Shown: positions 22,291-54,513 of the stretch, piece by piece
Layout of the letters: each line of letters begins with the position of its first letter
How positions within the stretch are numbered: the stretch's first letter is position 1
From: Candidatus Omnitrophota bacterium
Lineage (GTDB): Bacteria; Omnitrophota; Gorgyraeia; Zapsychrales; Zapsychraceae
NCBI GenBank assembly: GCA_015233405.1
Contig: JADFXT010000002.1
Coordinates: 132,451-196,450, forward strand
Direction: 5' to 3'
DNA length: 64,000 nt
Program-made: the position numbers and the translations under genes
The notes under the pieces: generated by a model
Database searches by the model: none
Told to the model about the DNA's origin: nothing
The model's input: only the letters and a program-made list of their open reading frames with translations

Positions 22291-22295
22291 GATTT

Positions 22296-28287: not shown

Positions 28288-28301
28288 TTTATTTGTCCCG
28301 C

Positions 28302-28438: not shown

Positions 28439-28455
28439 ACAATAAGCAGTGCTGC

Positions 28456-29712: not shown

Positions 29713-29775
29713 GAGGTTGTTCTCGAATTGTTGTAGGGGCGGTTCGCGAACCGCCCCCACGGGTTGCTGAAATTT

Positions 29776-31152: not shown

Positions 31153-31168
31153 AGATCCCCTTTTCTTG

Positions 31169-32341: not shown

Positions 32342-32451
32342 GTCTAAACTCCTTATTTCTTTGAAGGTGTCATTGCGAACGATTTTTGCGAAGTAATCTT
32401 TTTTAAATGGATTGCCGCGTCGGGCTAAAGCCCTCCTCGCCAGGACATGTT

Positions 32452-33366: not shown

Positions 33367-33370
33367 AGGG

Positions 33371-35409: not shown

Positions 35410-35464
35410 GGGTTTTCCTTTAGGTTCCTCCGCGGGAAAGAATTCCTTGAAACGGCCCGAGAGG

Positions 35465-36604: not shown

Positions 36605-36605
36605 A

Positions 36606-37625: not shown

Positions 37626-37686
37626 GTTCGCTCCCTATAGTTATATTATGAATTTCACGACGACAATAAGAGCCTTATCATAAAAT

Positions 37687-37771
37687 AAAAAACCCATCTC
37701 GTCAACTCTTTTATCACGGAAAAAATGATTTTTTCGTGATGGCTTTTGGCCTTTAGAGGATCAGAGATGGG
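37687..37771 (-). terminator. branched terminator downstream of rpsI, upstream of the arg operon
   Basis: Minus strand: CCCATCTC (37771-37764), inner hairpin ATCACG/CGTGAT (37740-37713), GAGATGGG (37700-37693), then U6 (37692-37687). Confidence 0.5.
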
Positions 37772-37806
37772 TGATTAATCAATTGTTTATTTTTGAAATT
37801 ATGGGT

Positions 37807-38202
37807 TTATCGTTTGACCCATTGGAATTTTCTACGAGCGCCCTTCTGACCCGGTTTCTTTCTTTCCTTCATTCTTGGGTCACGGCTTAAAAGGGATGCT
37901 TTCTTTAACACTGTTTTGTTTTCAGCGTCAAACAAAGATAAGGCGCGTGCTAACGCGAGGCGTAGCGCTCCAGCTTGGCCGGTTGAACCGCCGCCGGTGA
38001 TCTTGGCCTCCACATTGAATTTGTCTTTTGTGTTGGTCAGGTTAAGCGGCTCTACGATAATTATGCGGTCTGTTTCCCGAGGAAAATAATTTTCAAATGT
38101 TCGCTTGTTCACGCGGATAACGCCATTGCCTGGGGTTAATATTATCCGAGCAACGGAACTTTTTCGTCGACCTGTAGCACCATATTTAACGACTTCTACC
38201 AT
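37807..38202 (-). CDS. rpsI: 30S ribosomal protein S9
   Basis: GGGSTGQAGALRLALARAL and the C-terminus ...GQKGARRKFQWVKR. Confidence 0.97.
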   Translation of the reverse strand: MVEVVKYGATGRRKSSVARIILTPGNGVIRVNKRTFENYFPRETDRIIIVEPLNLTNTKDKFNVEAKITGGGSTGQAGALRLALARALSLFDAENKTVLKKASLLSRDPRMKERKKPGQKGARRKFQWVKR

Positions 38203-38217
38203 AAGGCTATTTCTCCT

Positions 38218-38652
38218 TTAAATATCTAAAACAATAGGTTGTTGTGCGGTATGGGGATGTTTATCTCCCGCGTAAATCTTTAACTTCCGTTTGACTTGAT
38301 TTCCTAACGGGCCGCTAGGGATCATGCGATTGACGGCTAGCTTAAGAACTTGGGTCGGTTTGTTTTTCAGCATGTCCCCAAGTTTTACAAGTTTTAACCC
38401 TGAATGATATCCGGAATAGCGCATGTAGGTCTTTTGGTCTAATTTTTTTCCGGTTACCTTAATTTTATCGGCGTTAATAATGACCACCATATCTCCGGTG
38501 TCAATATTCGGAGTATATGTGGTTTTATGTTTGCCTCGTAGAATGGTTGCCGCTTTGGCAGCCACACGACCGAGGATTTTATCTTTGGCGTCGATGAGGT
38601 AACATTTGCAGATAACGTCTTTTTCTTTAGCGATATAAGATTTTTGAATCAT
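38218..38652 (-). CDS. rplM: 50S ribosomal protein L13
   Basis: WYLIDA-type start (CYLIDAKDKILGRVA), RGKHKTTYTP and MLPKN-like MIPSGPLG. Confidence 0.97.
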   Translation of the reverse strand: MIQKSYIAKEKDVICKCYLIDAKDKILGRVAAKAATILRGKHKTTYTPNIDTGDMVVIINADKIKVTGKKLDQKTYMRYSGYHSGLKLVKLGDMLKNKPTQVLKLAVNRMIPSGPLGNQVKRKLKIYAGDKHPHTAQQPIVLDI

Positions 38653-38698
38653 TTCGTTTTTTATCCCTTTTTAAATAAAATTTCTAATTTGAGCTAAA

Positions 38699-38726
38699 AG
38701 TATAACATTAAATGATATATTGTCAA
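38699..38726 (-). promoter_or_regulatory. candidate sigma70 promoter of rplM-rpsI
   Basis: Minus strand: TTGACA (38721-38726), 16 nt, TATACT (38699-38704), 47 nt upstream of the rplM ATG. Confidence 0.5.
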
Positions 38727-38745
38727 ATGATTTTCTCGGCGATTT

Positions 38746-39495
38746 TTAGTATTTTGTCTCCCAGAGGCATAAACCTTTTGCCGGGGCTGTAGGGCTGGCA
38801 CAAGAACGGTCTTTGGCGCTAAGGATCTTCTTCATCGATCCTTTGGCGAGTTTGCCGCGGCCGACTTCAATCAGGGTTCCGACGATGCTGCGGACCATTT
38901 TATATAAGAAGCCATCCGCTTCAATATCAATGGTGATACGCCCGTCTTTTTTCTTGATATCCAATCGTTTAATGGTTCGGACGGAGTCCTCTCCTCTTTC
39001 CGGCCTCGCTGGGTCAGTGGATTGGAAAGATTTAAAGTTGTGTTTACCGACGAGGACTTTGGCTTCTTCTTTCATGACTTTAAGGTTTAATTTGTAAGGA
39101 TAAAACAAACAAAAATTTCTTTGCTGGGGACTACGGCTTGGGCGGTTAAGAATGGTATAGCGGTAGGTCTTGGTTTTAATCCCGTATTGCGCGTGGAATT
39201 TTAATGGCATCTCTTCGACGTTTATAATAGAAATGTCGTCAGGAAGATTAGCGTTTAAGGCCCTGAGGATTTCATCCGTGGGCATCGCAGTTTTAATTTT
39301 AAGATGGGCGGTTTGTCCTAAGGCATGGACCCCGCTGTCCGTACGGCCGGACCCGATCAAGGTAATATTTTTCTTGAAAATTATTTTGAGGGCTTTTTGG
39401 ATTTCGCCTTGGACGGTACGGCAATTTTGGGCCTGAGTTTGCCAGCCATTAAAATTCGTGCCGTCGTATTCGATGGTGAGCCTGAAATTTTGCAT
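38746..39495 (-). CDS. truA: tRNA pseudouridine(38-40) synthase
   Basis: YDGTNFNGWQ, the catalytic Asp in GSGRTDSGVHA, and FLYKMVR. Confidence 0.93.
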   Translation of the reverse strand: MQNFRLTIEYDGTNFNGWQTQAQNCRTVQGEIQKALKIIFKKNITLIGSGRTDSGVHALGQTAHLKIKTAMPTDEILRALNANLPDDISIINVEEMPLKFHAQYGIKTKTYRYTILNRPSRSPQQRNFCLFYPYKLNLKVMKEEAKVLVGKHNFKSFQSTDPARPERGEDSVRTIKRLDIKKKDGRITIDIEADGFLYKMVRSIVGTLIEVGRGKLAKGSMKKILSAKDRSCASPTAPAKGLCLWETKY

Positions 39496-39509
39496 GGTAA
39501 ATTTGACCG

Positions 39510-40535
39510 CTATTTTACGAGAATTTCCGCAATCTGGACGGCATTCGTGGCCGCGCCTTTTCGCAAATTATCAGCAACGACCCACAGCCATAATCCGTTT
39601 TTAACAAACGCATCATTACGGATACGGCCCACAAAAGTCTCGTCCTTGCCCTCGACATCTTTAGGCATGGGATAAAGGCCGGTTTTAGGATCGTCGACGA
39701 GAATCACGCCGGGCGCCTTGGATAGAAGTTTTTTGATTTGTGCTGCCGTGACAGGTTTTTTGGTTTCGATATAGACGGATTCCGAATGACCTGTCCTGAC
39801 TGGAACGCGCACGGTTGTTGCGGAAACTTTGAGCTTATTGTCGTGCATGATCTTATGTGTTTCCTTGACGAGCTTCCATTCTTCACTGGTATAATCGCCG
39901 TCGGTGAATCCGCCGATTTGAGGAAATACGTTATAAGCTAATTGCTGGGGCATGGATTTATTAGAAACGCTAGTATGGACATTGTTAAATCCGCCAGCTT
40001 GGATCTGATTAAGCTCTTCTTTTAATTGCTCAACAGCGCCTTTGCCTGCGCCGGAGGATGCTTGAAGCGTGGTCACAATGATCCTTTTGATGCCAAATTT
40101 TTTATGAATAGGCCAAAGCGCGACGACCATTTGTATCGTCGAGCAGTTGGGATTGGCGATAATGCCTTTATGTTTCTTGACGTCGCCGGCATTGACTTCC
40201 GGGACGACCAACGGAACGTCCTTTTCCATACGAAAATCGGCACCGTTATCAATCACAACGCATCCACGTTTGACCGCTTCTTGGGCGAACGTGACAGCCG
40301 CGCCCTTCTCTCCTTCGGTCCCGGCAAATAAGGCAATATCGACGCCGTCAAATGCTTCAGCGCTGATAGGTTCTACATTATAAATTGTTCCGTCGACATC
40401 TAATGGCCTCGCCGAACGGGCAAAGACTCGGATGTTGTCCGCCGGGAAATTGCGCTGTTTTAGCACACGTAACATTTCAACCCCGACAACACCCGCGCCG
40501 ATGACGGCTACGGTATATTTATTCTTCAATTTCAT
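39510..40535 (-). CDS. asd: aspartate-semialdehyde dehydrogenase
   Basis: VAVIGAGVVG, the catalytic Cys in NPNCSTIQMV, and SGAGKGA. Confidence 0.93.
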   Translation of the reverse strand: MKLKNKYTVAVIGAGVVGVEMLRVLKQRNFPADNIRVFARSARPLDVDGTIYNVEPISAEAFDGVDIALFAGTEGEKGAAVTFAQEAVKRGCVVIDNGADFRMEKDVPLVVPEVNAGDVKKHKGIIANPNCSTIQMVVALWPIHKKFGIKRIIVTTLQASSGAGKGAVEQLKEELNQIQAGGFNNVHTSVSNKSMPQQLAYNVFPQIGGFTDGDYTSEEWKLVKETHKIMHDNKLKVSATTVRVPVRTGHSESVYIETKKPVTAAQIKKLLSKAPGVILVDDPKTGLYPMPKDVEGKDETFVGRIRNDAFVKNGLWLWVVADNLRKGAATNAVQIAEILVK

Positions 40536-40622
40536 TGCTTGATTCTCCTATTATTCGTGAAACGTGAAGCGTAAAAAAAATTGGGTTTGCTTGCGTTTCA
40601 CCCTTCACGGTTAACGTTTCAC

Positions 40623-41681
40623 TTATTTTAAATGTTTGACCACCAAGTCCCCGACTTCCGTCGTGGAGTAGCCCATTTTTCCTGCAGCCAGGTCTTTTAA
40701 TTTTGTCAAAACGACTTCTTTGACGGAGTTTTCAATCATGTCGCCGGCCTTGACTTCGCCGATCTGGCGTAAAAGCATCGCTGCAGCGCAAATGGCAGCA
40801 AGCGGATTGATAACATTTTTACCCGTATATTTCGGAGCTGACCCGCCGATAGGCTCGAACATTGATACGCCTTCGGGATTGATGTTCCCGCCGGCAGCAA
40901 TGCCCATTCCCCCTTGGATCATGGCGCCTAAGTCCGTGATGATGTCGCCGAACATGTTGTCGGTGACGATGACATCAAACCATTCCGGGTTCTTGACGAA
41001 CCACATGGTGGTCGCATCGACGTGGGCATAATCGGTTTTGACGTCCGGGTATTCTTTGGCGACTTCATAAAACGTTCTTTCCCAAAGATCGAATGCAAAA
41101 GTTAAGACGTTGGTTTTTCCGCAAAGCGTTAATTGTTTTTTCTTGCCGTATTTTCGGGTGTATTCAAATGCGTAACGAAGGCATCGCTCAACGCCTTTTC
41201 GGGTATTATGCGAAACTTGGATAGCGACTTCGTCTTTGGTCCCTTTGTTCTGGAATTCGCCCAAGCCTTTATATAAGCCTTCGGAATTCTCACGCACGAC
41301 GGTAAAATTGATATCTTCTGGCTTTTTATTTTTGAGCGGGCAAAAGCGTTCGTCATAAAGTTTCACAGGACGCAAATTAATATATTGGTCCAGGTCGAAG
41401 CGTAGTTTAAGGAGAATCCCCTTCTCTAATATGCCGGGCTTCACATCCGGGTGTCCAATAGCGCCTAAGAAAATGGCATCATAGGTCTTAAGTTCGCTCA
41501 CCGCAGTTGCCGGCAGGACTTCATTGGTTCTTAAATAACGTTCGCCGCCGAAATCGTAGGTGTGCGTCTCATATTTAAAGTTGCATTTTTGTGCAACAGC
41601 CTGAAGGGCTTTTAAGCCTTCGTTAACGACTTCCGGCCCTGTCCCGTCGCCGGGAATCACAGCGATTTTATAGGTATTCAT
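40623..41681 (-). CDS. leuB: isopropylmalate/tartrate dehydrogenase family beta-decarboxylating dehydrogenase (LeuB-like)
   Basis: IAVIPGDGTGPEV, YINLRP, the NMFGDIITDL signature and IGGSAP. I cannot resolve the substrate (3-isopropylmalate, tartrate or homoisocitrate) by eye. Confidence 0.6.
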   Translation of the reverse strand: MNTYKIAVIPGDGTGPEVVNEGLKALQAVAQKCNFKYETHTYDFGGERYLRTNEVLPATAVSELKTYDAIFLGAIGHPDVKPGILEKGILLKLRFDLDQYINLRPVKLYDERFCPLKNKKPEDINFTVVRENSEGLYKGLGEFQNKGTKDEVAIQVSHNTRKGVERCLRYAFEYTRKYGKKKQLTLCGKTNVLTFAFDLWERTFYEVAKEYPDVKTDYAHVDATTMWFVKNPEWFDVIVTDNMFGDIITDLGAMIQGGMGIAAGGNINPEGVSMFEPIGGSAPKYTGKNVINPLAAICAAAMLLRQIGEVKAGDMIENSVKEVVLTKLKDLAAGKMGYSTTEVGDLVVKHLK

Positions 41682-41717
41682 GTCTTGTCCTTTATGTTTT
41701 TGTAAGGATTATAAATC

Positions 41718-42965
41718 TTATTCCTGGAATTTTTTAACGACCACCGTCGCGTTATGGCCACCAAAACCTAATGAGTTCGACATGGCGACGTTGACCTTGG
41801 CTCTGCGTGCAACGTTCGGCACATAATCTAGGTCGCAGTCCGGGTCCGGCGTTTCATAGTTGATCGTCGGTGGAATAATGTCATTCATGACGGCTAAGAC
41901 GCTTGCGGCAAATTCAACGCCGCCGGCAGCGCCTAAGAGATGTCCGGTCATGGATTTCGTCGAGCTGATCGGAACTTTTTTGGCTAAATCGCCAAAGACT
42001 CTTTTAATCGCCATGGTTTCAATTTTGTCATTTAATTTTGTGGATGTTCCGTGGGCATTAATATAGGAAATATCTTTCGGTGTTAATCCTGCATCATGAA
42101 TGGCCAACTCCATGGCCTTGGCGCCGCCGATCCCTTCAGGATGAGGCGCGGTAATATGATACGCATCACCGGTCCGTCCATATCCAACGAGCTCGCAGAG
42201 AATGGGTGCGCCGCGTTTTTTGGCATGGCTAAGTTCTTCTAGTATGGCAATTCCCGCTCCTTCGCCCATGACAAATCCGTCTCTGTCCATATCAAACGGT
42301 CGGGAGGCTTTTTGCGGGTCGTTGTTTCGTTTTGTAGACAAGGCTTTGAGTGCACAGAATCCGCCCATGCCGAGTTCCGTATTGGCGCTTTCTGTTCCAC
42401 CGGCGATCATCATATCTGCGTCACCATATTGGATAAAGCGCAGTGCGTCCCCGATGGCATTTGTGGCCGTCGAGCAAGCAGTCGCGACACAGGTATTAAT
42501 TCCGCGGGCGCCGCATTGAATAGAAACATGGCCAGCGGCTTCGTTGATGATCATCTTCGGAATAAAATGAGGAGAAATGCGGCTCGGTCCTTTTTCCATA
42601 AATTTTCTATGTTCTTCTTCAAAGGTCAAGATACTTCCGATCCCAGAACCGACAAGTACACCGACGCGGTCTAAGTCGACTTTTTGCGGGTCGAATTGGG
42701 CTGCGGCTAGTGCTTCTTTGGATGCGATACAGGCAAATTGAACGAAATCCGCAATGGTCCTGGCTTCCTTGGAATTAAAGTGATCGAGCGGGTTATAATT
42801 TGGAACCATTCCGGCGATTTGGCAGTCAAACAGGGTTGAGTCAAAATGCGTGATACGGACAATGCCGCTTCTGCCTTCTTTAAGTCCACTCCAGAATTCC
42901 GTGATTCCTGTCCCGAGGGGAGAAATCACGCCTAATCCTGTTACAACGACTCTTCTTTTATTCAT
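41718..42965 (-). CDS. fabF: beta-ketoacyl-ACP synthase II
   Basis: RRVVVTGLG, the active-site Cys in ATACSTATNA, the His-His pair (AYHITAP and INAHGTST), and GFGGHNA. Confidence 0.93.
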   Translation of the reverse strand: MNKRRVVVTGLGVISPLGTGITEFWSGLKEGRSGIVRITHFDSTLFDCQIAGMVPNYNPLDHFNSKEARTIADFVQFACIASKEALAAAQFDPQKVDLDRVGVLVGSGIGSILTFEEEHRKFMEKGPSRISPHFIPKMIINEAAGHVSIQCGARGINTCVATACSTATNAIGDALRFIQYGDADMMIAGGTESANTELGMGGFCALKALSTKRNNDPQKASRPFDMDRDGFVMGEGAGIAILEELSHAKKRGAPILCELVGYGRTGDAYHITAPHPEGIGGAKAMELAIHDAGLTPKDISYINAHGTSTKLNDKIETMAIKRVFGDLAKKVPISSTKSMTGHLLGAAGGVEFAASVLAVMNDIIPPTINYETPDPDCDLDYVPNVARRAKVNVAMSNSLGFGGHNATVVVKKFQE

Positions 42966-43062
42966 AAATATTAGTCCGTTTCTTAATTGATAATAGTAGA
43001 ATGCCTCGGTGTCACCACCGAGGCACTTTTAAACATTTGAAACGCTTGGAAGGAAAAAGATC

Positions 43063-43299
43063 TTACTTAGAACCTTTTTCATTGATATATTTGATGGCAT
43101 CGCCAACTTTTGTCATTTTTTCCGCATCTTCATCCGGAATTTCAACGCCGAATTCTTCTTCTAAAGCCATAATAAGCTCGACGGTATCCAAAGAGTCTGC
43201 GCCAAGATCATCAATAAAAGATGCTTCAGGAGTCACCTCTTCGATTTTAACGCCTAATTGTTCCGCGATGATTGATTTGATTTTTTCTTCTGCTGCCAT
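43063..43299 (-). CDS. acpP: acyl carrier protein
   Basis: 78 aa with the phosphopantetheine site [19 protein letters not shown]. Confidence 0.97.
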
Positions 43300-43344
43300 G
43301 TGTATTTCCTCCTTTTGTGGACCTTAATTAGCTTCCCTATATAT

Positions 43345-44085
43345 TTATATCGCCATACCGCCGTCAACCACGATAACTTGCCCGGTGATGTAATCGGCTT
43401 TGCTGGATGCTAAAAATAAGCATACGCCAGCGACATCCTGAGGGCTTCCTAATTTCCCCAGCGGAATGGTTTTAAAAATTTCTTCTTTAGCTTTTTCATT
43501 GAGTTTATCAGTCATATCTGACTGAATGTAGCCAGGGGCAACGGCATTCGATGTGATACCCCGTGAGGCAAATTCTTTAGCAATTGATTTTGTAAACCCA
43601 ATAATACCGGCTTTACTTGCTGAATAATTCGCCTGCCCTGCGTTTCCGACAATGCCAATGATCGAAGCGATATTAATGATTTTTCCTTTTCGGGCCTTCA
43701 TCATGGGTTTAACGATGGTTTTAGTACAGATGAAGACACCTTTAAGGTTAATATCTAAGACGGCATCCCAGTCGGATTCATTCATGCGAAGCAATAAATT
43801 ATCTCTGGTGATGCCTGCGTTGTTAACTAATATATCAATGCGATTGTATTTGTCAAGAATTTTGTCCGTCATTTCTTCGACGCTTTTTAAGTCTGTGACG
43901 TTGCAGGCAAAACTGTCGGCCTTAAAGCCTTGGGCCTTAAGTTCTTCACAGGTTTTAGCTGCCATTTCAGCGTTAATATCAGAAATAATGACGGTCGCGC
44001 CTTCCTTGGCAAAGCTTTCTGCAATGGCCCGGCCGATGCCGCGCGCTGAACCTGTGATAAGAGTTACTTGGTCTTTTAACTCCAT
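43345..44085 (-). CDS. fabG: 3-oxoacyl-ACP reductase
   Basis: An SDR enzyme with TGSARGIGRAIA, NNAG and YSASKAG; it lies adjacent to acpP and fabF. Confidence 0.9.
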   Translation of the reverse strand: MELKDQVTLITGSARGIGRAIAESFAKEGATVIISDINAEMAAKTCEELKAQGFKADSFACNVTDLKSVEEMTDKILDKYNRIDILVNNAGITRDNLLLRMNESDWDAVLDINLKGVFICTKTIVKPMMKARKGKIINIASIIGIVGNAGQANYSASKAGIIGFTKSIAKEFASRGITSNAVAPGYIQSDMTDKLNEKAKEEIFKTIPLGKLGSPQDVAGVCLFLASSKADYITGQVIVVDGGMAI

Positions 44086-44710: not shown

Positions 44711-45259
44711 TTAGGTAATCAGAGTGAGGAATTCTGAACGGGTAGAGATGTTTTTCCGAAAGGCGCCAAGCATATAAGACGTTTTCATGACGGAGTTTTG
44801 TTTCTCAACGCCGCGCATCATGGTACATAAATGCCGGGCTTCGATAACAACGCCAACGCCCTGGGCATTGGTAAATTTTTGGATGGTCTCGGCAATCTGT
44901 TTGGTTAAATTCTCCTGGACCTGTAACCTCCGCGCGAAAATATCGACGATCCGAGAAATTTTAGAAAGACCCATGATTTTTCCATTTGGCAGGTATCCGA
45001 CGTGGCATTTGCCAAAGAAAGGTAATAAATGATGTTCGCACAAGGAATACAGTTCGATGTCCTTGACGATGACCATTTCATCGTTATCGGACTCAAAGAT
45101 CGCGCCGTTAACGACTTCCTCTATATTCTCGTGGTAGCCTTTGGTCAGATATTGAAACGCCTCGGCCGCGCGTTTGGGCGTATCTTTAAGCCCTTGACGG
45201 TCGGTGTTCTCTCCGATGGATTTGATGAGTTCTTTATAAAATTTTTCCATGACGCGCAT
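44711..45259 (-). CDS. folE: GTP cyclohydrolase I
   Basis: [19 protein letters not shown] and RLQVQE. Confidence 0.93.
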
Positions 45260-45303: not shown

Positions 45304-48300
45304 TTAGCGCAGGCTCAGCTTTTCTGGCGGATTTTGAGCCATCCCTAAGAACATCGGCACGGTTGTCGTCATGGGACGGATATCAATGATGACGGGCGTT
45401 AAGCCGGAAGCGTTTTGTAATTGTTCGATCATCGCGGGATCGAATTTGAATTGAATCCCCTCGCCCTCATTCTGAACTTGCACATTCATCTTGTCGCCGG
45501 TGAGGTCAATACCACCGGGAGATTTATTTTCGGATGAGGAACTCATCGCAGCGTCAGGGCCGGTTATTTTATCCAATATTTCATAATCAATGTATTTAAA
45601 GTTGCGTAATGTCGGTTTATTGGATATGACAATGCACTTCACTTTTCCTATAAGATCGTTACCATGTCCTAAGAGCCCGCTGGCCTCCAATTCGGCATAT
45701 CTTTTCTTAATGTTTTCTTTCGTTCCTAAGAAAATGATTTTGAAATTATCTCCCTGAGGGTATTTGATCCTCTCTCGAGCCATTTCGTCCATAAAGCTGG
45801 CATATTTCGCTTCGCCTTCTCGTTCAATTGTTGCGCCGGTATTATTTGCATCTACGGGCAGAATTTGCATTCCTTTGGGCAATCGACCCAGGTTTTTAAG
45901 AAGATAAAAAACCGTGGTCCTGAGTTTTCGTTGCGTTTTGACTTTAGGGTATGCTTTTGTATTGATGATCTTGTAGATCTTTCCCAAGAGTGCATTTTTA
46001 TCTTTAAAATTTGATTCCCATTCTGGTTTTGCGGCAAAATTATATTTCATTAATGGGCACAAATCTGGGAATAAATACTCCAGCAATCGTCTGTTCAGTT
46101 TTCTTTTGGCATATTCTTTGGGATTCGCCGTGGCCTTTTGAATTAGATTCATTAATCCTAAGCCCATCTTGCTATTGAGCGGAATCTTTCTAGGATCATA
46201 GAGATTTTCTTTCTTTAATAATTCATTCAGCCAGGCGGCCCCATTAAGTTTTTCCAGGCTTTCATCTTTGATGACCTCTTTAAAACTTTCTTCTCTCTTT
46301 ATGGCGTTGATCAACGGCGCTATGTTGTCATCGTCCGTAAAATTCGGGTTTATGAATTTATCGCCGAGGCTTAACGATTGAGGCGATGCGTCATAGTCAT
46401 CAGAGTTGTAGTCTTGAGCAAGCTTATTAAGCTCCCCTTCCAGAATGTTCAATCTTTCTTTCCCAAGCGCGTCTGTCGTTATTTGATTACCTTTTCCTTG
46501 GATGCCTATGAATGCATCTAAGGTGGCAATGACAACCCGTCGGGGTTTAAAAATATATCCGATCCCAAAAGCGCAATTTTCACAGCTTTCTAATGAAATA
46601 TATACGTCCGTATTTTTCATCTCCCATCCGTTTGATGCTGCCCGACTTAGCGCATTCATTTCTGCGTGTTCTTCCGTATCCATTTTTACAAAATTTTTAT
46701 CTTTCGGCCAAACGTCGATTAGCCCGATCCTTTCTTTATAAGAATCTGGCCAATTCTGCCCTGGAATAAATTGATGTTTGGGGCGATTTGACACAATGGT
46801 TTTCCAATCCTCATTGTTTACAGTTATTGCAAAAACCGGCGCAGTTTTATCCGGATTGAGTTCTTTTTCGCGAACAAGATATAAAGTCGCTCCTATGACC
46901 AAGATATCTCGGAGTTTTTGATTTTTTCGAAATGCTTCTGGAATCTCTGCCTGATAGCCCTTTTCCCTCCCGAGCACTCTATCAACAAATCCTTGAATAT
47001 TTTCTTCAGTATAATTACCAAATTCCGTTGAGACGTTGGCTAGTTCTCTTCCGATAGCTTTTAATAATATTTTTTTGTCCTGTTTCTCCCACTTCTCTCT
47101 TTTCATCCGTTCCATCAAAAGCGCATCAAGATCAATGCCGATCTTTTTGGCGATATTTTCTTCATATCCGACCGCGGCCAGATAGCGACGAGCCTGAAGT
47201 GCTTGCTCAAAAGTAGCTGCCCGAAAAATGATTTTCCGAGTTGTTTCTTTATCTAGATTAAAAGGAGCAATGTCCTCAAAAAACCTTCTGGCCCGCTCAA
47301 TATTACCTGTTTTGATGATCTCTTCAATTTCTCGTAGATTGGATTCTTGATTCTTATGCGTCAAGATTGTTTTCATTTCATTAAGCAAACTTTCGTTTAC
47401 CATGCCGCTTGCCAGCATCGCCCGATATTTCGGCGCAAAATCAATCCATTTCCAATTCCATGAATAATATGGCGTACGCGTTCGATCTTTATAAATGTTT
47501 TCCACTATTTCTTTGGTTTCATCGTCGAATTTCAGCCCATATTCAAATTTATATCCGATAGTCCTTAAGACTCCATGCGGCGTCAGTTTAAGTTTCCAGT
47601 CATCCCCCGCACCCTGACGTTTTTTTAAGCGCGCAATTTTGTTGATCAACAAATCCTCAATTCCTCCGTCGGGAGCATAAATAACGCCGCTACTATCTAC
47701 CCACATCTCCGCGATAGGTTCAACGGCGGTCGAGAATAGATTCGCCTTATATTTTACCGTTAAAGTTTTTGTGTCGTAAACCCCGAGATAATCAAGATGA
47801 ATGCCATGCCATACCCAGGATTCTTGGGGCTCCGTAATGTTTTTGACCTCGTTTTGTCCTCCTAAGGTTTGACGTAAGGCGTCTAAGACTTTCCTACCCA
47901 GAACCTCTTTGTTCGGGTCATCTTCAGACAAACCGATAAACATGTCCAAGTCCGCACCTTCCCGAAGAGTTTCCTCACCCGTTAATAGGCGACGCACAGT
48001 TCCTCCGGCCATGACGATGGTTCCCGACGGCCAGCCGTGCTCCTTTTCAATATTCCTGATCAATTCCAGCACGTCTTTGACTGTCGTCTTCCCTGGAACG
48101 GACCGCAAGCCATCGATCCCACCCGGCAGAGGTATTTCTCGTAACCGATTGTTGTTATAGAATGCCATGACCAGCGAAAATTGTTTGTTGAGTAGTGCAT
48201 CGGGGTCAGCCATAAGCTGTAAATTTTCCTGCCAGGATTGCATCTGTGGGCTGGTCTCTCCATAAGTTTCTGCTATCAAGGCCTTAATCTGATCTAAATG

Positions 48301-51300
48301 TTTCTGAATTTGGCGGATCTGATAAAGATAGGTGTTTCTGTATTGGGTGAACAATTTGTTACGTCCAGCTTCGGTCGAGAACTCCGACAGCGCAGTTAAA
48401 ATATCCAACTCCGCATTGCCATTTAAGAAACCGCTGATCATCTGCGAACTTTTTTGAAGCAGAAAATCATGGTCGACGGCAAGCAATTCCACAGAATTCT
48501 TATTCTTGGAGAGTATCATATAATTTGCCGGAAATCCGTGATGGACGTTCTGTACTACTTTTCGGTCTGAACGGCCTAAGAAATCCCCAACGGCCGCCCA
48601 TCGGGCCAGCGATTCAATGATCTGCTCCTTTTTAGGGAAGACGTTCTCTTTGAATCGGTATCGTCGTTCGAAAAGATCAAAGAAAGTCTGAGTATCTGAT
48701 CCAGAGATTTCTTCCATCAAAGTCATTCCGTGGATTCCCTTTTGCTTAAGTGGATAAAATTCCGCCGTAATAGACGGAAGACCCAGCAACCGAGTTATCT
48801 TGTAGAAAAATGTTTCATTGTATTGGACTCCAGGGGGCATTTTTTCTCTGACTGCCGATGTTTTTAGAAAGAACCGAATTTCATTTCCATCCACATTTCG
48901 CAAAGTAATTCGATAGACGATTTGGTTTGCTGTCATTATGCGTCCTGAGCTGAAATCTTCGATCTTGGATAGCTTCACTCCCTGAGGCTCCAAATCCTGG
49001 TTGAAATGAAGTTTTTCTAGAAAGGACCGTTGCTGAGCACTGAGGGTCGATCCTTTTGTCAAAAAGTCAGACAAGAAAGATCGGATATTTTTTTCAACCT
49101 CGCCGGATAGAATTTTCGATGAGAAAATTTTTATTCTTATTCCCATAGGAATATCGTTGATCAGGTCTCGCTGTATAACCATGAAATTTTGGAACATGCC
49201 GGGATTCAGTTTTTCTTTCTGCGGATATCCTGTAAATGGAAGAGCCAACAACTTTTTATCAACCATGGACTCGACCAAAAGTCGGGGATCTGCATCCACC
49301 GCTGTTTTATTTTTTTTCACAAAATTATAAACATGCCGCACAAGCCAAACTGCGTCTTGTTCGACTAGACCAAATTCCTTAAGTAAACGGACATTTTCTT
49401 TCATCTCTGACGACGGGATTGCGTCGTTATTTTTCTCTCCACCAGCCGGAGCACCAGTCGTCATCGCTTGATCCAAAACGCCTTGTGCGTTGTTCTGAAT
49501 GGGAGATGCGCTTGTTTTCACAAGATCTTTTTTCTTCACGGTATAATAGAGCTGCTGTGAAAACTTTATGTTGCCGCCCAGCCTCGTAATAAGATCCCGT
49601 TCGCCTACCCTTTTAAATAGATGTTCATCCCCTTTATCGGTCTTTACCGCGATCCGCACTGTATTGCCTTGATCTAATATTCCTGCATTTTTTGCGCCCA
49701 GCTGCTTCATAAGCTGGTAAGCGCTTCTGATCGTCGGCCCGTATTTTTGTTTCTCACCGTCGACGGCTACGTCTATAATTGTGCCGTCTTCTTTTGTTCC
49801 AATAATATGGAAAGGAAAGTTATTCTCTTTAAAAAAGATCTCTATCTCTCCGCTTCCCAAATTTATTTTATAATCGCCACGATTAACGACGGATTCATCC
49901 TCTTTCGTCTTTTCTGTATATCTAAGAGCGTTTAATTTTTCCGTTAATTTATTAGCTAACAATTTTTCTTGATCTCTGATATTGCCGTTCCTAAATTCAT
50001 CTATCGGCAAGGATAATTTTAATTGCACAGAATGATTGACGGCTTGTTTCAATAATTCTTTATTTTCCAGCAACTGATCAATGCCAAAAGACAACCCGCC
50101 ACTTGCGCCAACCCGAATGCCATTAAAATCTTTATCATCAAAATAAGCCGTCGAAATCAAATGTTTCACATCATCATACCAGTCAATGCTGGCAGCACTT
50201 TCATTCGGCTTAACAAAAGCGCCGTTACGCATAATCAACTGAACGAATGTCGCACTTCTTACTCTATCTGTAACCGGTTGTTTTCCTTCCTTTTCAATGT
50301 ATATATCGGTCTCAGTTGTTCCCAACCCTGATTTGAGCTTAAAGGTCACGTTCTCTTCGATCGTTGGCGGCTTGTCTTTCCACATAATTAATATGGGACA
50401 TTTACGGCTTTCGACGTCATAAAATGTCCCATCCGTCTTCATGGCATACAACAGTTTTCCGTCGACAAGAGAGACGATGGGCTTATTAACATACAAATTA
50501 TCTGCGCTGGATGAGGCCACAATATCGCGTCCTTTTGCCTCCTCTTTACTCCGTAACTCTTCTTGGATCACTTCAAAAGTCTTCATATGATCTCTGCGGA
50601 TATCCAGTTCTTTTGTCGATAACACCGTTTTTCCCTTCCGATAAACTATTTGATTGGTCTTTCGATCAATGGCAGACAGCAGCCCAAAAAAACTGTCATC
50701 AACGTACAATCCCATCTCTATGCCGCTATCCGGCGGAATTTCCAAAATGGCGATGGCTACTGCCTCCTTATCATTTTTATTTGCTCTGACCCAATGCCCA
50801 TTACTAAAGGTTCCATATCCTTTTGTCTGCTTTAAGGTGCCTGTTGCCATGGCTTTATCTGCTGGTCCTACACTATTTTCTTTGACCATGGCATCAATGA
50901 TTTGAGCAAGATTCTGTCTAATAACTAATATCGTTTTTTCGTTATGGCCTGGCGACGTGACCCAAGCTTTCCATTGATCAAAAAAACTTTCTAATTTATT
51001 TAAAAGTTCCGTCCGTTCCTCGCCATTCATGACAGATATTCTCGCCAGAGATGGCCGCTCCTTGTCCAGTGCAAAAATCTTAAGTCTGCTATAATACGGG
51101 TCTTTCTCGTCGATCAAGAATCGAAGGATCTCTTTTGTTGTTTTCATTTGACCGATCAAGACAGAATATTTCTGGATCAGACCGTTCTCATCAACATTCC
51201 TATCTTCCCGCGTCGGTTCAAAAGAACCCATCATCCCGTCGTACATGCCTTTAAAAATATTTAGAAAGATCAGGTCCAGATCAATGCTATTCGGCTTTTG

Positions 51301-54300
51301 TCTCTTGATGACTTCCCGTATGCGGTCAAAAACGCTCCCGGTGATTTGATTATTGCCCCATTTTGATTTCATTAGGGAAGGTCCCAACAGACGGTAAAGG
51401 GAATAATAATCAAAAACTTTCCATGCCGGATCTTGTTCCGATTTCTGCCAGAACTTTTCTGCCAGTAAAAAAGAATTCTTCCATAAGAAATATTGATTGC
51501 GCGGTTTATGGATATAATCGAAACGTCCATGAAAGACCGCGGTGTTGGCAATGATCGCTTGTTTGAATCCTGTTCGGCGCAATAAATAAGACGCGTCATC
51601 TTCATCCTTGTACATGAACAATCTCGAATCAAACCCGCCGCTTAAATGAAGCACATTAGCGCGAAGCATCATCGCCATGCCTTGCAATGCCGGAACACGA
51701 TGAAATAGATCAGGATCTTGCGGGTCCAAGAATCCTTCATCATGACTTAATCCTTTTCTTAATTCGTCACTTGCTTTGATTTCGGCTTTGATCAATGGTT
51801 CAGATATGTTGCCAGTTTTCCCGACTTCGTTCATGCTTTCTTCAAGCTCAGGGCTTAAAGCGACCAGCAAGGATTGCAGCGCTCCCACATCCGGACGAGA
51901 TCGGAATTTCGTTATCATTTTTTCCAAGGCCTTTGGGTCCAAGACAGAATCATTGTTCAGAAAAAACACAAACTCGCTTCCTCCCCTCATGGCGATGTGG
52001 GCCGCTTGATTATTCCCGCCGGTAAAACTGATGTTGGATCTATTTCTGACAAGTTTTATTTTGTCACGGATCCTTTCGGGAAGCGCGGGACGAAGTTCTG
52101 TCTCAAAATGGTCAGAAAATTTATCCGGAGAGTTATTGTCGACAAGAACGACCTCGAAATTCTCATAGGTTTGTCTGGCAAGCGTGTTTAACAATCGCAC
52201 TGTGCTTTCTGGAGTCATGCCGTAATGAAGGACAACAATGGAAACTTTTGGATTTGTCGCAAAAGTTTCTATATTCTTCTCATGCTCTTCATAGGTTCCG
52301 CTGACGGATGGATGATCTTTAAACCACTGTGCGTCTTCTTTAAGATATTTGAGCGCGTCGATATCTTGGGGGCTTCGTAGCTCTAACCGCTCTTTTAGGA
52401 TATCGGCTGTGAGCGGATGGTTTTTGCGGACATCTTCAATGATGGTGAGAATATCTTGTTTTAGAATTACGGTCTCAAGTCCAGTTTCACTAAAACTTTC
52501 CAAGATCTTATCGACCTTCTCCAAGCTATCTACAACAACACGCGCTCCTGCTTTTAACAGTTCTTCCTTGGAAGATTTTCCTGTCGTCGCGGCAAATCCA
52601 ACGGTAGGTATGCCTGCCTCAGTTGCCATTTGAGCCGCTTTTATATCGCTTACTGCGTCTCCTCCCATAGCAACAAAGACTTTTTTTGCTTCTTTACCAG
52701 ACTGATTGGCAATTGATTTACGCACATAAGCAGCAATATAGTTTGCCTTAAATGATCCGGCATCACCGAATCCCATCTTTTTGTAATCCCACGGGATTCC
52801 TCGCGCTACTTCGAACTTAAGACCATACTCTTGAACTCGCAGATCAACCTCTAATTGGGTCGCATGGCTCAAAAGAATCAAATGAATGGGAAACCCTTCC
52901 TGTCGTTTCTTCTCAAGACTAACAAAAAATTCGTCGACACCGGGCATTTTTCGTGTTGTTTCTTTAAAGCCGGCCTTAAACAATCGTTCAAATAATGACT
53001 GATATTCGGCGATAGTATTTTTTGGCGTCCACGAAGAGCCTTTTTCCTGCTTCAATTCATGAATGATCTCTGGGATATGATCAGGCCCTAAAAGATGTGT
53101 ATGGCTGCGATGGTACTCTCGGCCCTGTTTTAAATCAGCATCAGATAGTTCTATAGGGGTATTGACGTCAATGTCATTTTTTATTCTCCAATAAATTTCC
53201 CCATAAATATTGTCGACCAAATCCCATCCTTTCCATAAAAAGTTATCCGCATCGAGAAAAATATAGTTTTCGCTTTCTTTGCTCCAACTCATGGGAAAAG
53301 TCGGACCTATCTTGGAGTTTTCCTTTACAGGCCTAATCGGGTTTACCGGAGAGAAATTCGATTCCACAACCATCGCCCGATCGGAAATGCCTTCAGGCAG
53401 CGTGGCAAGGTCGGTGGTTTTACGATAAACTTTTCTGATCTGGTTTAACCCTGCTCCTCCGGAGAAATATTTTTTTGGCACAATCTGCTGCGTTACCGGG
53501 TCATAATCTTCCTTAATATAGTTGTAGGCGCCTTTCTTAAAAGTCTCGACGTATTGTGCCCAAATTTTGTCCTTGGCCGCTTTATCCGGGATATCGACGC
53601 CGTCAATCTTATTTTGGTCGACGTAAGCCTTACCCAAAAGGCTTTCTTTGACCTTGTCTTTAAACCAAACCGCCAGAATAAGCGAATGATAGACTTGGCG
53701 TAATTGCGCAAAGTTCTTGCCTGTGTTGACTTCTTTTTCAATGGCGGGGATAATTATTTGACGGATGACCATAGACGATAGACCAGAGACCATAGACCTT
53801 TTTTCAGCCGAAGGCTGGTCTATAGTCTTTTGTCTATGGTCTTTTGTCTGTTCTAGCGCTTCGTATTCTTCCTCCAACATCACCTTCAACTTCGCCTCGA
53901 CAACGTAAGCGGAGTCTTTGTTTTCATATACAACAGCTTTTTCCGGCACGATCCAAACCTTATTAAATGTGTCGACGGGAATATCGGTTGTGCCGAAACG
54001 GTTTTTAGCTTCGGCATAAATTTTATTCCAGAATTCTTTTCCTATTTTGCCTTCCGGATACATCAAAGATGCTGTGATTTGTTTTAAAATATAATCTTGC
54101 GCCAAAAGGTCGCGGCCCATTTCCGTTACGCCGAACGCATCCGGGATGATGCGGTTCTTTTCGTGCGGGGAAAGATTGACCCAAAGGTCTTTTTCAGGAA
54201 CCGTCAGCGAGGCGAGAAAATATTTAATTAGGCGAGTGGATTCCATTTTTAATTGTTCCGCTCCATTATTCAAATCGCCTTTATCTAAAATAAATTCAAG

Positions 54301-54513
54301 ATGAAATGGATTGTCGGGATGAATTTTAACGCCTTTAAGAAGCGGCGGGATATAAGTTGGTGACAGATTAACTTTTGTTCCAGGCGCCGGCAGGTTCAAT
54401 GTCTGCGCGTAGCTCGGCGGGACAATGGATGTAAACGTAAACGCAAGAAGAATAAAGACACAGATGCCCTTGATATATAATTTCTTTTGAATTTTGGGTA
54501 ACGCGTTCTTCAT
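45304..54513 (-). CDS. giant exported multi-enzyme protein (3069 aa): signal peptide, conserved N-module, HAD, GT2, unassigned module, kinase-like, pol-beta NTase, CDA-like deaminase, conserved C-module
   Basis: One uninterrupted 9.2-kb ORF with a Sec-type signal peptide (KKLYIKGICVFILLAFTFTSIVPPSYA|Q).
- HAD: LDADNF (D421/D423, nt 53245-53253) and GGDAVSD (D619).
- GT2: residues ~757-1000 (VVLVDNNSPD, FFLNNDS, DEDD 970-973), nt 51514-52251.
- Kinase-like: FFLKT, LMEEISG, SDRKVVQN (D1983..N1989) and VDHDF (2014-2016), nt ~48334-48996.
- NTase: AGGTVRRLL...ADLDMF (G2170-G2171, D2188/D2190), nt ~47644-48096.
- Deaminase: HAE (2616-2618, nt 46660-46668) and SCENC (C2644/C2647).
- The N-module (residues 37-377) and C-module (2991-3069) are shared with the neighbouring gene. 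Confidence 0.85.
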   Translation of the reverse strand: MKNALPKIQKKLYIKGICVFILLAFTFTSIVPPSYAQTLNLPAPGTKVNLSPTYIPPLLKGVKIHPDNPFHLEFILDKGDLNNGAEQLKMESTRLIKYFLASLTVPEKDLWVNLSPHEKNRIIPDAFGVTEMGRDLLAQDYILKQITASLMYPEGKIGKEFWNKIYAEAKNRFGTTDIPVDTFNKVWIVPEKAVVYENKDSAYVVEAKLKVMLEEEYEALEQTKDHRQKTIDQPSAEKRSMVSGLSSMVIRQIIIPAIEKEVNTGKNFAQLRQVYHSLILAVWFKDKVKESLLGKAYVDQNKIDGVDIPDKAAKDKIWAQYVETFKKGAYNYIKEDYDPVTQQIVPKKYFSGGAGLNQIRKVYRKTTDLATLPEGISDRAMVVESNFSPVNPIRPVKENSKIGPTFPMSWSKESENYIFLDADNFLWKGWDLVDNIYGEIYWRIKNDIDVNTPIELSDADLKQGREYHRSHTHLLGPDHIPEIIHELKQEKGSSWTPKNTIAEYQSLFERLFKAGFKETTRKMPGVDEFFVSLEKKRQEGFPIHLILLSHATQLEVDLRVQEYGLKFEVARGIPWDYKKMGFGDAGSFKANYIAAYVRKSIANQSGKEAKKVFVAMGGDAVSDIKAAQMATEAGIPTVGFAATTGKSSKEELLKAGARVVVDSLEKVDKILESFSETGLETVILKQDILTIIEDVRKNHPLTADILKERLELRSPQDIDALKYLKEDAQWFKDHPSVSGTYEEHEKNIETFATNPKVSIVVLHYGMTPESTVRLLNTLARQTYENFEVVLVDNNSPDKFSDHFETELRPALPERIRDKIKLVRNRSNISFTGGNNQAAHIAMRGGSEFVFFLNNDSVLDPKALEKMITKFRSRPDVGALQSLLVALSPELEESMNEVGKTGNISEPLIKAEIKASDELRKGLSHDEGFLDPQDPDLFHRVPALQGMAMMLRANVLHLSGGFDSRLFMYKDEDDASYLLRRTGFKQAIIANTAVFHGRFDYIHKPRNQYFLWKNSFLLAEKFWQKSEQDPAWKVFDYYSLYRLLGPSLMKSKWGNNQITGSVFDRIREVIKRQKPNSIDLDLIFLNIFKGMYDGMMGSFEPTREDRNVDENGLIQKYSVLIGQMKTTKEILRFLIDEKDPYYSRLKIFALDKERPSLARISVMNGEERTELLNKLESFFDQWKAWVTSPGHNEKTILVIRQNLAQIIDAMVKENSVGPADKAMATGTLKQTKGYGTFSNGHWVRANKNDKEAVAIAILEIPPDSGIEMGLYVDDSFFGLLSAIDRKTNQIVYRKGKTVLSTKELDIRRDHMKTFEVIQEELRSKEEAKGRDIVASSSADNLYVNKPIVSLVDGKLLYAMKTDGTFYDVESRKCPILIMWKDKPPTIEENVTFKLKSGLGTTETDIYIEKEGKQPVTDRVRSATFVQLIMRNGAFVKPNESAASIDWYDDVKHLISTAYFDDKDFNGIRVGASGGLSFGIDQLLENKELLKQAVNHSVQLKLSLPIDEFRNGNIRDQEKLLANKLTEKLNALRYTEKTKEDESVVNRGDYKINLGSGEIEIFFKENNFPFHIIGTKEDGTIIDVAVDGEKQKYGPTIRSAYQLMKQLGAKNAGILDQGNTVRIAVKTDKGDEHLFKRVGERDLITRLGGNIKFSQQLYYTVKKKDLVKTSASPIQNNAQGVLDQAMTTGAPAGGEKNNDAIPSSEMKENVRLLKEFGLVEQDAVWLVRHVYNFVKKNKTAVDADPRLLVESMVDKKLLALPFTGYPQKEKLNPGMFQNFMVIQRDLINDIPMGIRIKIFSSKILSGEVEKNIRSFLSDFLTKGSTLSAQQRSFLEKLHFNQDLEPQGVKLSKIEDFSSGRIMTANQIVYRITLRNVDGNEIRFFLKTSAVREKMPPGVQYNETFFYKITRLLGLPSITAEFYPLKQKGIHGMTLMEEISGSDTQTFFDLFERRYRFKENVFPKKEQIIESLARWAAVGDFLGRSDRKVVQNVHHGFPANYMILSKNKNSVELLAVDHDFLLQKSSQMISGFLNGNAELDILTALSEFSTEAGRNKLFTQYRNTYLYQIRQIQKHLDQIKALIAETYGETSPQMQSWQENLQLMADPDALLNKQFSLVMAFYNNNRLREIPLPGGIDGLRSVPGKTTVKDVLELIRNIEKEHGWPSGTIVMAGGTVRRLLTGEETLREGADLDMFIGLSEDDPNKEVLGRKVLDALRQTLGGQNEVKNITEPQESWVWHGIHLDYLGVYDTKTLTVKYKANLFSTAVEPIAEMWVDSSGVIYAPDGGIEDLLINKIARLKKRQGAGDDWKLKLTPHGVLRTIGYKFEYGLKFDDETKEIVENIYKDRTRTPYYSWNWKWIDFAPKYRAMLASGMVNESLLNEMKTILTHKNQESNLREIEEIIKTGNIERARRFFEDIAPFNLDKETTRKIIFRAATFEQALQARRYLAAVGYEENIAKKIGIDLDALLMERMKREKWEKQDKKILLKAIGRELANVSTEFGNYTEENIQGFVDRVLGREKGYQAEIPEAFRKNQKLRDILVIGATLYLVREKELNPDKTAPVFAITVNNEDWKTIVSNRPKHQFIPGQNWPDSYKERIGLIDVWPKDKNFVKMDTEEHAEMNALSRAASNGWEMKNTDVYISLESCENCAFGIGYIFKPRRVVIATLDAFIGIQGKGNQITTDALGKERLNILEGELNKLAQDYNSDDYDASPQSLSLGDKFINPNFTDDDNIAPLINAIKREESFKEVIKDESLEKLNGAAWLNELLKKENLYDPRKIPLNSKMGLGLMNLIQKATANPKEYAKRKLNRRLLEYLFPDLCPLMKYNFAAKPEWESNFKDKNALLGKIYKIINTKAYPKVKTQRKLRTTVFYLLKNLGRLPKGMQILPVDANNTGATIEREGEAKYASFMDEMARERIKYPQGDNFKIIFLGTKENIKKRYAELEASGLLGHGNDLIGKVKCIVISNKPTLRNFKYIDYEILDKITGPDAAMSSSSENKSPGGIDLTGDKMNVQVQNEGEGIQFKFDPAMIEQLQNASGLTPVIIDIRPMTTTVPMFLGMAQNPPEKLSLR

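Follow-up and report, generated by a model that had tools for sequence, protein, structure and literature searches.

How does a deaminase motif come to lie inside a giant protein that carries an export signal, with no immunity gene beside it? The question is raised by a stretch of 64,000 nucleotides from a Candidatus Omnitrophota bacterium (GenBank assembly GCA_015233405.1, contig JADFXT010000002.1, positions 132,451 to 196,450), which is called the window here, and in which a first-pass annotation had pointed to a zinc motif of the cytidine deaminase (CDA) superfamily at 46444..46836. The motif, the domain and protein which hold it, the relatives of both and the neighbouring genes were analyzed by sequence search, alignment and structure prediction. 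The reading to which we give about even odds (a probability of roughly 0.5) is that this is an active CDA-superfamily deaminase carried as cargo by an exported Omnitrophota carrier protein, and that it would work outside the cytoplasm of its producer and would need no immunity protein.

Motif and host protein

The interval 46444..46836 is coding on the minus strand, and translation places it within a single open reading frame (ORF) of 3069 amino acids (aa) at 45304..54513, in whose minus-strand translation DTEEHAEMNALSRAASNGWEMKNTDVYISLESCENCAFGI is present. The plus strand of the interval gives a stop-ridden translation and is overlapped by no plus-strand ORF of at least 80 aa. The features on which the argument first depends are the following.

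45304..54513, minus strand: the giant protein, 3069 aa, a single ORF; host of the deaminase and member of the carrier family defined by an N-module and a C-module
46405..46920, minus strand: CDA-fold deaminase domain, residues 2532-2703, from the AlphaFold2 (AF2) model, Foldseek and profile searches
46660..46668, minus strand: H2616-A-E2618, the zinc-ligand histidine and the catalytic glutamate, from motif and alignment
46573..46587, minus strand: S2643-C2644-E-N-C2647 with the two zinc-ligand cysteines, from motif and alignment
46684..46767, minus strand: insert of 28 aa between strand b2 and the HAE helix, residues 2583-2610, from alignment

Translation and coordinates agree with the HAE and CxxC arrangement as it was first described, with its residue numbers and with 25 residues from E2618 to the first cysteine (C2644); a further 422 residues lie on the C-terminal side of the motif. 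When the 3069-aa protein was shuffled 20,000 times, the strict pattern H[AC]E-x20-35-[PS]CxxC did not occur at all and the relaxed pattern HxE-x20-35-CxxC occurred once, and a chance origin of the motif is excluded. The giant has only six cysteines in 3069 residues (0.20%), C2644 and C2647 being two of the five in the mature chain, and SCENC is its sole CxxC. The keeping of this pair in a cysteine-depleted protein is therefore evidence that the pair is needed.

Family, fold and conservation of the deaminase

An exhaustive HMMER search of 1.84 billion representative proteins gave 11 matches, eight of which are true relatives (P0001 to P0004, P0006, P0008, P0010 and P0011), and these were aligned with the window domain to give an alignment of nine sequences. 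The histidine, the glutamate, both zinc cysteines and also E2642, which stands before the first cysteine, are invariant in all nine, as are a few structural residues. Overall identity of the relatives to the window deaminase is 19-41%, and the deaminase is judged likely to be active because these residues are held invariant at such identities. The serine which the first-pass annotation had noticed in place of the usual proline before the first cysteine is found in eight of the nine.

It may be asked here whether the domain is what remains of a deaminase that has lost its activity and now serves for structure or binding. The serine could be taken in that sense, and the window sequence passes the Pfam threshold only marginally, with only the C-terminal half of the model matched (dCMP_cyt_deam_1, PF00383; 26.8 bits against a gathering cut-off of 25, E 5e-6, residues 2612-2663). 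However, all four catalytic and zinc residues and the flanking glutamate are preserved across divergent relatives and in a cysteine-purged protein, and the N-terminal half (helix a1, strands b1 and b2) is there too and can be aligned if the 28-aa insert is taken into account, which makes a remnant highly improbable. The relatives score 30-53 bits to the same Pfam model.

Single-sequence phmmer searches against PDB sequences matched the T4 dCMP deaminase (7e-5), TadA (1e-3) and also the S. mutans dCMP deaminase, the HAEMNAL helix aligning residue for residue with the S. mutans and T4 enzymes. In the nine-sequence alignment the 28-aa insert is common only to the window domain and its closest relative P0001, and phmmer aligned it to the equivalent insert of the T4 dCMP deaminase. 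A profile of the family matched TadA (3e-17), RibD (2.5e-12) and T4 dCMP deaminase (2e-8), with APOBEC at an E value of about 1 and no toxin deaminase among the matches listed. The best NCBIfam model is TadA; its equivalog cut-off is 150 bits, of which the relatives reach 22.9-45.3, and the window module does not match it.

The AF2 model, built on the nine-sequence alignment, has the order a1-b1-b2-(insert)-a2(HAE)-b3-a3(CxxC)-b4-a4-b5-a5, with a predicted local distance difference test (pLDDT) score of 70-90 in the core. Foldseek matched it with probability 1.0 to more than 30 deaminase chains, including T4 and human dCMP deaminase, ADAT2 and the PBCV-1 bi-DCD, and with the same probability to yeast cytosine deaminase, RibG and viral dCMP deaminases. 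The assignment to the CDA superfamily made in the first-pass annotation, which would have fallen with a different predicted fold or with loss of the HAE and CxxC residues in relatives, is thus upheld by Pfam, by PDB sequence and profile searches and by AF2 with Foldseek, the fold obtained being that of a deaminase and the H, E, C and C being invariant in 9/9 sequences. Judged from sequence and model together, the motif marks a genuine CDA-superfamily deaminase domain, predicted to be zinc-dependent, which looks catalytically intact, and the modelled position of helix 4 between strands 4 and 5 places it in the TadA, dCMP-deaminase and RibD branch.

The domain is rare. A word-indexed protein search gave one partial relative, and its sole matches outside the family were RibD proteins; a metagenome scan with the deaminase module gave no match, and a second metagenome scan with the core alignment returned only contigs which were already known. 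The deaminase is a new and very rare subfamily of a well-known fold, set in a new architecture.

Comparison with housekeeping deaminases

With TadA (NF008113; PDB 7cph, 2b3j, 1z3a) the window domain shares the helix-4 CDA fold, H-A-E with (P/S)CxxC, an N-terminal helix and a post-zinc segment of the form RVVF..D...G.G. It differs in its place at about residue 2600 of a 3069-aa protein with a signal peptide, in the 28-aa insert and in the region, here called X, which follows it. TadA is a stand-alone cytoplasmic enzyme of about 150-180 aa with one copy per genome, which the window domain is not; judged by its sequence, the domain is no TadA equivalog, and an essential TadA would not be nearly so rare.

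The enzyme dCMP deaminase, or ComEB (1vq2, 2w4l, 2hvv, 7fh4), supplies the best single-sequence PDB match and the top Foldseek matches, and the likeness extends to the HAE(L/M)NA(I/L) active-site helix and to an insert before HAE (phmmer, 1vq2 and 2hvv). In contrast, identity is 16-21% and TadA and RibD rank above it in the family-profile search; neither the second zinc site of dCMP deaminase nor its allosteric dCTP site was identified here, no residue-level structural comparison having been made.

RibD or RibG (2b3z, 2g6v) resembles the window protein in having a deaminase and then a second domain in one chain. The aligned RibD has EPCYH with no second cysteine three residues on, whereas the window domain has a tight CxxC. 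The possibility that X is a diverged RibD reductase was tried and rejected: hhalign was credible over the deaminase half only, and no RibD_C (PF01872) was found in X from eight proteins. Lacking that reductase domain, the protein is not a RibD.

The carrier family and its cargo

The deaminase is one passenger in a protein whose ends are shared with many others. The features of this frame are as follows.

54406..54513, minus strand: predicted Sec signal peptide, residues 1-36, predicted cleavage SYA/Q37, from charge, hydropathy and conservation
53455..54405, minus strand: N-module, residues 37-353 (about 320 aa), 51% identical to that of the tandem paralogue
45307..45558, minus strand: C-module, residues 2986-3069 (GGIDL...FDPAM..LQNASGLTPVIIDIRPM...FLG), common to the upstream paralogue
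54737..58585, minus strand: tandem paralogue, 1282 aa, no cysteine; N- and C-modules alike, middle different

The paralogue lies directly upstream of the giant; its first 350 or so residues are 51% identical and it also has the C-module, and the middles of the two proteins are unrelated. The N-module has no Pfam or NCBIfam match and no PDB sequence match, and its AF2 model (pLDDT 67) found no PDB fold match better than E 0.3. The conserved part of the C-module is about 60 aa with the pattern GGIDL...FDPAM..LQNA.G..PVII.I.P....FLG; it has no Pfam match, was found by tblastn in 48 of 79 related loci and stands at the end of most complete family ORFs.

These related loci come from a search of species-representative genomes with the N-module alignment, which gave more than 569 loci, of which 79 were kept for analysis. 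The titles of almost all 79 name Omnitrophota or Omnitrophica, and those of the rest 'uncultured Planctomycetales' or one of a few further labels; by these titles the family is all but confined to Omnitrophota. Several genomes have more than one locus of it. At least 1619 family members were found in the protein database at E < 1e-10, nearly all named hypothetical and none with a Pfam domain over the N-module. Family ORFs in the 79 loci range from about 400 to more than 3600 aa and frequently form tandem arrays (four in L052, three each in L054 and L023). The middle of the window giant has no segment in common with any of the 79 loci. On the sequence evidence, a carrier begins with a Sec-type signal peptide and a conserved N-module, continues with a hypervariable middle and ends in a conserved C-module of about 60 aa, and all four are found in the giant.

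The middles were surveyed by Pfam on 57 members (22 long and 35 shorter), with the 25 commonest families taken per scan. Glycolytic and sugar enzymes were found (PGK, PGI, enolase, GAPDH, hexokinase, phosphoglucomutase, PPDK, UDP-glucose pyrophosphorylase), together with CoA- and B12-linked enzymes (methylmalonyl-CoA mutase with its B12 domain, acyl-CoA dehydrogenase and synthetase) and with phosphoribosyltransferase, Glu and Ala dehydrogenases, S-adenosylmethionine (SAM) methyltransferases, radical SAM and GNAT domains. Regulatory and repeat domains were PP2C, histidine phosphatase, response regulator, ankyrin, HEAT and SNF2. No toxin, nuclease or adhesin family is among the census families listed. 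The metabolic cargo behind the signal peptide is well conserved (methylmalonyl-CoA mutase E 1.7e-147, PGI 2.8e-189, PGK 2.7e-107), and L056:9983-20398 is one of the loci with middles of central-metabolism enzymes.

In the window giant itself the middle holds two assignable co-cargo segments.

51523..52251, minus strand: family 2 glycosyltransferase (GT2), residues 755-997, Pfam Glycos_transf_2 E 1.8e-12, also Glyco_tranf_2_3
49648..49845, minus strand: segment like the phosphodiester glycosidase NAGPA, residues 1557-1622, Pfam NAGPA at 35.6-41 bits (cut-off 25)

The GT2 segment matches heparosan synthase among PDB sequences (E 1.8e-5), and further weak HAD-like and nucleotidyltransferase (NTase)-like signals occur in the middle. 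A CCA-adding NTase at residues ~2145-2204 was suggested by eye (GG..R...D.D) and was not taken as support for a connection with tRNA, as Pfam gave only MdcG at E 0.029. Over the giant gene alone (46001..54000) the GC skew of the plus strand falls clearly below zero (-0.07 to -0.16), and in its same-strand neighbours, the paralogue included, it is about 0 to +0.1; this could reflect the amino-acid composition of the giant or a foreign origin.

Two known classes of large protein invite comparison. A 2026 preprint describes Omnitrophota 'multi-enzyme metabolic cluster' proteins of at least 10,000 aa with signal peptides and many unrelated enzyme domains, among them HAD, glycosyltransferase, methyltransferase, phosphoglucomutase, radical SAM, NUDIX and hexokinase domains (10.64898/2026.06.07.730766). 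The giant fits this class, although it differs in being 3069 aa long and in having no internal transmembrane helices. The N/C-module family and the deaminase are not mentioned in the searched portions of that preprint, of West-Roberts et al. 2023 or of Seymour et al. 2023; a description in Kizina et al. 2022 is possible.

The second comparison is an analogy only. In MARTX toxins, conserved terminal regions bracket a variable cassette of enzyme domains, and the carrier proteins are alike in having conserved N- and C-terminal regions around such a cassette. They are unlike MARTX in that no RTX repeats, cysteine-protease domain or type I secretion signal was detected in the giant by Pfam and NCBIfam, and in that the cargo is largely of central metabolism. 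The carrier family is more surprising than the deaminase itself.

The deaminase-X module

45559..46404, minus strand: X region, residues 2704-2985, with a conserved core at about 2830-2975, from alignment and AF2

X is conserved after the deaminase in P0002 to P0004, P0006, P0008, P0010 and P0011, that is in all relatives long enough to show the region, with the alignment motifs QIxAxDxN and DxFKVVLxG. It was not found in the 79 carrier-family loci, which are without the deaminase. Since X always accompanies the deaminase and is absent from those loci, the two are taken as a two-part module. Neither the window X nor the homologous X regions gave a significant Pfam or PDB match; the AF2 model is b-a-b-a-b at moderate confidence (pLDDT 63-83). 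Residues ~2704-2830 (46026..46404, minus strand) form a window-specific stretch of about 125 aa, rich in D, N, E and K and with pLDDT below 50. It separates the deaminase from the X core and has the appearance of a disordered linker, or else of an insertion acquired recently.

In the window protein, P0003 and P0004 the C-terminal module of about 60 aa comes directly after deaminase-X. P0006 and P0010 (loci L082-L086; family members of about 2000 aa) have two deaminase domains each, the extra one being a divergent HTHxE...PCANC domain near residue 450 besides the deaminase-X module. Both further contain LOG-like (PF03641) domains, with scores close to the Pfam threshold, and the set as a whole points to nucleotide metabolism. 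P0003 has kinase-like domains besides deaminase-X. P0011 (L084:115-10209, GCA_016929115.1) is a protein of 3364 aa with the deaminase-X module and with duplicated radical-SAM regions, a methyltransferase and HD and HAD domains as cargo; it has no N-module, and therefore the deaminase-X module also occurs outside the N/C carrier frame.

Predicted export and possible site of action

The N-terminus of the giant has five lysines and then a hydrophobic region (Kyte-Doolittle 2.7 over 12 aa), and no other segment of the protein exceeds a Kyte-Doolittle value of 1.5. In 72 family N-termini there are typically 2-6 K/R and 0-1 D/E before a strongly hydrophobic 12-residue window, which is followed by a conserved (Y/F/H)-A-Q, with A36 and Q37 at least 90% conserved. 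A charged start, a hydrophobic window and then (Y/F/H)-A-Q are what is expected of a Sec signal peptide cut by signal peptidase I. Cysteine content points the same way, cysteine depletion being typical of proteins which work outside the cytoplasm: its median is 0.12% in family ORFs against 1.02% in the other ORFs of the same loci (p = 3e-33), and in the window it is 0.20% in the giant, 0% in the paralogue and 1-2% in most neighbouring genes. Export of the carrier proteins is well supported as a prediction from these features.

A cluster resembling a type II secretion system (T2SS) or type IV pilus lies at 5259..12432 on the minus strand, about 33 kb from the giant, with GspF/PilC, GspE/PilB, secretin, PilO and PilM-like genes. 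In published work, Omnitrophota giant genes are often near T2SS-like genes.

The signal peptide could instead be an uncleaved anchor, so that the giant is a membrane-tethered cytoplasmic scaffold on which the deaminase does ordinary salvage or modification. The cargo enzymes need cytoplasmic cofactors, and it is the problem of cofactor supply outside the cytoplasm that keeps this alternative alive; the preprint cited above (10.64898/2026.06.07.730766) also weighs inner-membrane anchoring for proteins of at least 10,000 aa, cytoplasmic domains anchored in this way being considered there for nearly half of the Omnitrophota proteins of that size. Against it, the positive charges stand before the hydrophobic region, which by the positive-inside rule puts the bulk of the protein outside, and the conserved (Y/F)AQ after that region is typical of a signal-peptidase site. 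Cytoplasmic enzymes would hardly be expected to have roughly 8-fold less cysteine than the products of neighbouring genes, and the deaminase-X module is too rare for a housekeeping TadA, Dcd or RibD. We consider such a scaffold unlikely.

If the protein is exported, the deaminase might act in another cell. It may be a nucleic-acid-editing effector, that is a TadA-like deaminase delivered into archaeal or bacterial prey, where it would damage tRNA, mRNA or DNA; the target would not be kin and the enzyme would never fold in the producer. The signal peptide and cysteine depletion are consistent with this, as are the TadA matches which head the family-profile and NCBIfam results, and Omnitrophota have been proposed as epibiotic predators or parasites (PMC10066038). 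The ankyrin, HEAT, kinase-like, PP2C, GNAT, glycosyltransferase and NTase-like cargo may also be said to resemble delivered effector repertoires. However, the NCBIfam TadA scores, at 23-45 bits, fall far short of the cut-off of 150, and the active-site helix and insert resemble dCMP deaminase. No translocation, pore-forming or autoprocessing domain was detected by Pfam, NCBIfam and the N-module fold search, most of the co-family cargo is central metabolism and not weaponry, and the Pfam families specific to toxin deaminases appear only below threshold, in one relative (P0010). An editing effector is therefore a doubtful reading, though one to be kept in view.

Immunity and the toxin reading

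44711..45259, minus strand: folE (GTP cyclohydrolase I), Pfam GTP_cyclohydroI E 5.6e-75; not an immunity candidate

The first-pass annotation had described an exported host protein with folE downstream and no adjacent immunity-like gene, and each part of this description agrees with the present data: a Sec-type signal peptide is predicted, folE lies 44 nt downstream of the stop codon of the giant, and no conserved immunity-like neighbour was found at the window locus or at five related loci (P0003, P0004, P0006, P0010 and P0011). At P0003 the next gene downstream has a Glu_synthase domain, at P0010 it encodes a methyltransferase and at P0006 a PAS sensor; P0011 is followed by a second giant, which has phosphoglucomutase domains, and P0004 by a further member of the family. 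The contig of P0008 ends about 220 nt past the stop codon, and its downstream gene is unreadable.

The most familiar explanation would be a classical polymorphic-toxin deaminase, with its immunity gene at another place or fused to it, for example as X. Deaminases of this kind, of which the DddA, SsdA and MafB19 class are examples, are reportedly the subject of Iyer et al. 2011 and Zhang et al. 2012. The window protein is like them in being a large, secreted, modular protein with a deaminase near its C-terminus. It is unlike them in that the domain is non-terminal, with X and the C-module after it, and in having no immunity gene. Three further observations bear on the fused form and on toxin descent. 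The window X has a weak Imm42 match (E 0.069, 14 bits); this candidate for a fused immunity domain was rejected as chance because the match, itself below threshold, is reproduced in none of the seven homologous X regions. The MafB19-deam model (PF14437) matches relatives above its cut-off, but it is not toxin-specific, as ordinary RibD proteins are annotated with it too. In its b4-a4-b5 topology the domain agrees with the housekeeping branch, whereas most toxin deaminases are reported, in Iyer et al. 2011, to belong to the other branch, with a C-terminal hairpin. Pfam and NCBIfam scans of the whole protein found no trafficking or pre-toxin domain (Rhs, LXG, PAAR, CdiA, MafB-N and others), the six loci have no conserved neighbour and the sibling cargo is metabolic. 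A classical polymorphic toxin is accordingly very unlikely. The anti-phage dCTP deaminase (NF041025 / PADLOC dCTPase) was also tried and rejected, with 17 bits against a cut-off of 400 and only the 33-residue zinc motif covered.

The domain had first been described as internal, with about 420 aa following it. The length stands, at 422 residues, but the position is not the oddity of a toxin that it was taken for: the domain looks internal because X and the C-module of about 60 aa follow it. The frame of a toxin lacking its immunity gene is itself probably wrong, the passengers of the carrier being ordinary metabolic and regulatory enzymes. The two ways out that had been offered, a non-toxin role and an unconventional self-protection, are both compatible with the evidence, and neither is proven.

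Two observations on the wider neighbourhood may be added. A long co-directional run of housekeeping biosynthesis genes occupies 21466..44085 on the minus strand (ArgJ, ArgD-like, ArgG, ArgH, LysA-like, DapA, PanC, Asd, LeuB-like, FabF, FabG and TruA), and the organism is therefore one with a substantial autonomous metabolism. The G+C content is 0.34-0.37 in 1..6000 and 12001..14000, against 0.41-0.48 in the rest of the window.

Proposed mechanism

In the reading favoured here, an exported carrier with an active deaminase as cargo, the polypeptide with its signal peptide would cross the inner membrane unfolded via Sec, and the deaminase would fold, bind zinc and become active only outside the cytoplasm of the producer. 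No immunity would be needed because the nucleotides and nucleic acids of the producer would never be exposed to the folded enzyme. The deaminase may act beside the sibling enzymes in the periplasm, at the surface of the cell or, as a speculation, within an attached prey or host cell, and the N- and C-modules may serve a common handling step (anchoring, secretion or assembly). The chemistry would most likely be hydrolytic deamination of a cytosine-type nucleotide or nucleoside, with tRNA or another nucleic acid as a possible substrate. Within this range the substrate appears to lean to a dCMP-like nucleotide because of the HAEMNAL helix, the T4-like insert, the structural neighbours, the small-molecule cargo and the LOG-like domains in P0006 and P0010.

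Several points weigh against this reading. The AF2 model is moderate overall (mean pLDDT 60, from a nine-sequence alignment, with a template modelling score by target of 0.5-0.66), and the viral Foldseek result is biased by the many dCMP deaminases in the library searched. Conservation statistics are thin because only nine relatives are available from among 1.84 billion representative proteins. Cleavage of the signal peptide was judged by eye and by hydropathy, with no trained predictor, and rare toxin-like cargo may escape a census of the 25 commonest families. The lean in substrate is weak because in sequence the family profile stands nearer to the tRNA enzyme TadA than to the dCMP deaminases, and this preference therefore keeps tRNA or another nucleic acid in play as substrate. 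The most serious point is that exported ATP-, NAD-, CoA- and B12-dependent cargo would have no obvious cofactor supply in the periplasm or at the surface, and therefore either export is wrong or there is a further delivery step which was not detected.

A bolder form of the same idea, which we put forward only tentatively and hold to be rather less than probable, is that the family is an undescribed Omnitrophota system for cargo display or delivery, in which the N- and C-modules bracket interchangeable enzymes which are exported by Sec and then brought to the surface or to prey, and in which the deaminase is a metabolic-hijack effector that needs no immunity. If this were true, the delivered enzymes would rewire or drain the metabolism of the host, for example its nucleotide pools.

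Meaning for Omnitrophota

The puzzle of a toxin without immunity is mostly gone, because the deaminase is one passenger of a modular family of enzyme carriers. Compact TadA-like or dCMP-like deaminases are raw material for base editors, and the domain may thus be of practical interest. Omnitrophota, which are uncultured, ultra-small and suspected predators, encode thousands of such proteins, strings of enzymes with a signal peptide and purged of cysteine. If these proteins are exported, the function outside the cell of glycolytic enzymes and of those dependent on CoA, B12 and nucleotides becomes a testable question, and the carrier family may give a handle on how Omnitrophota exploit their hosts.

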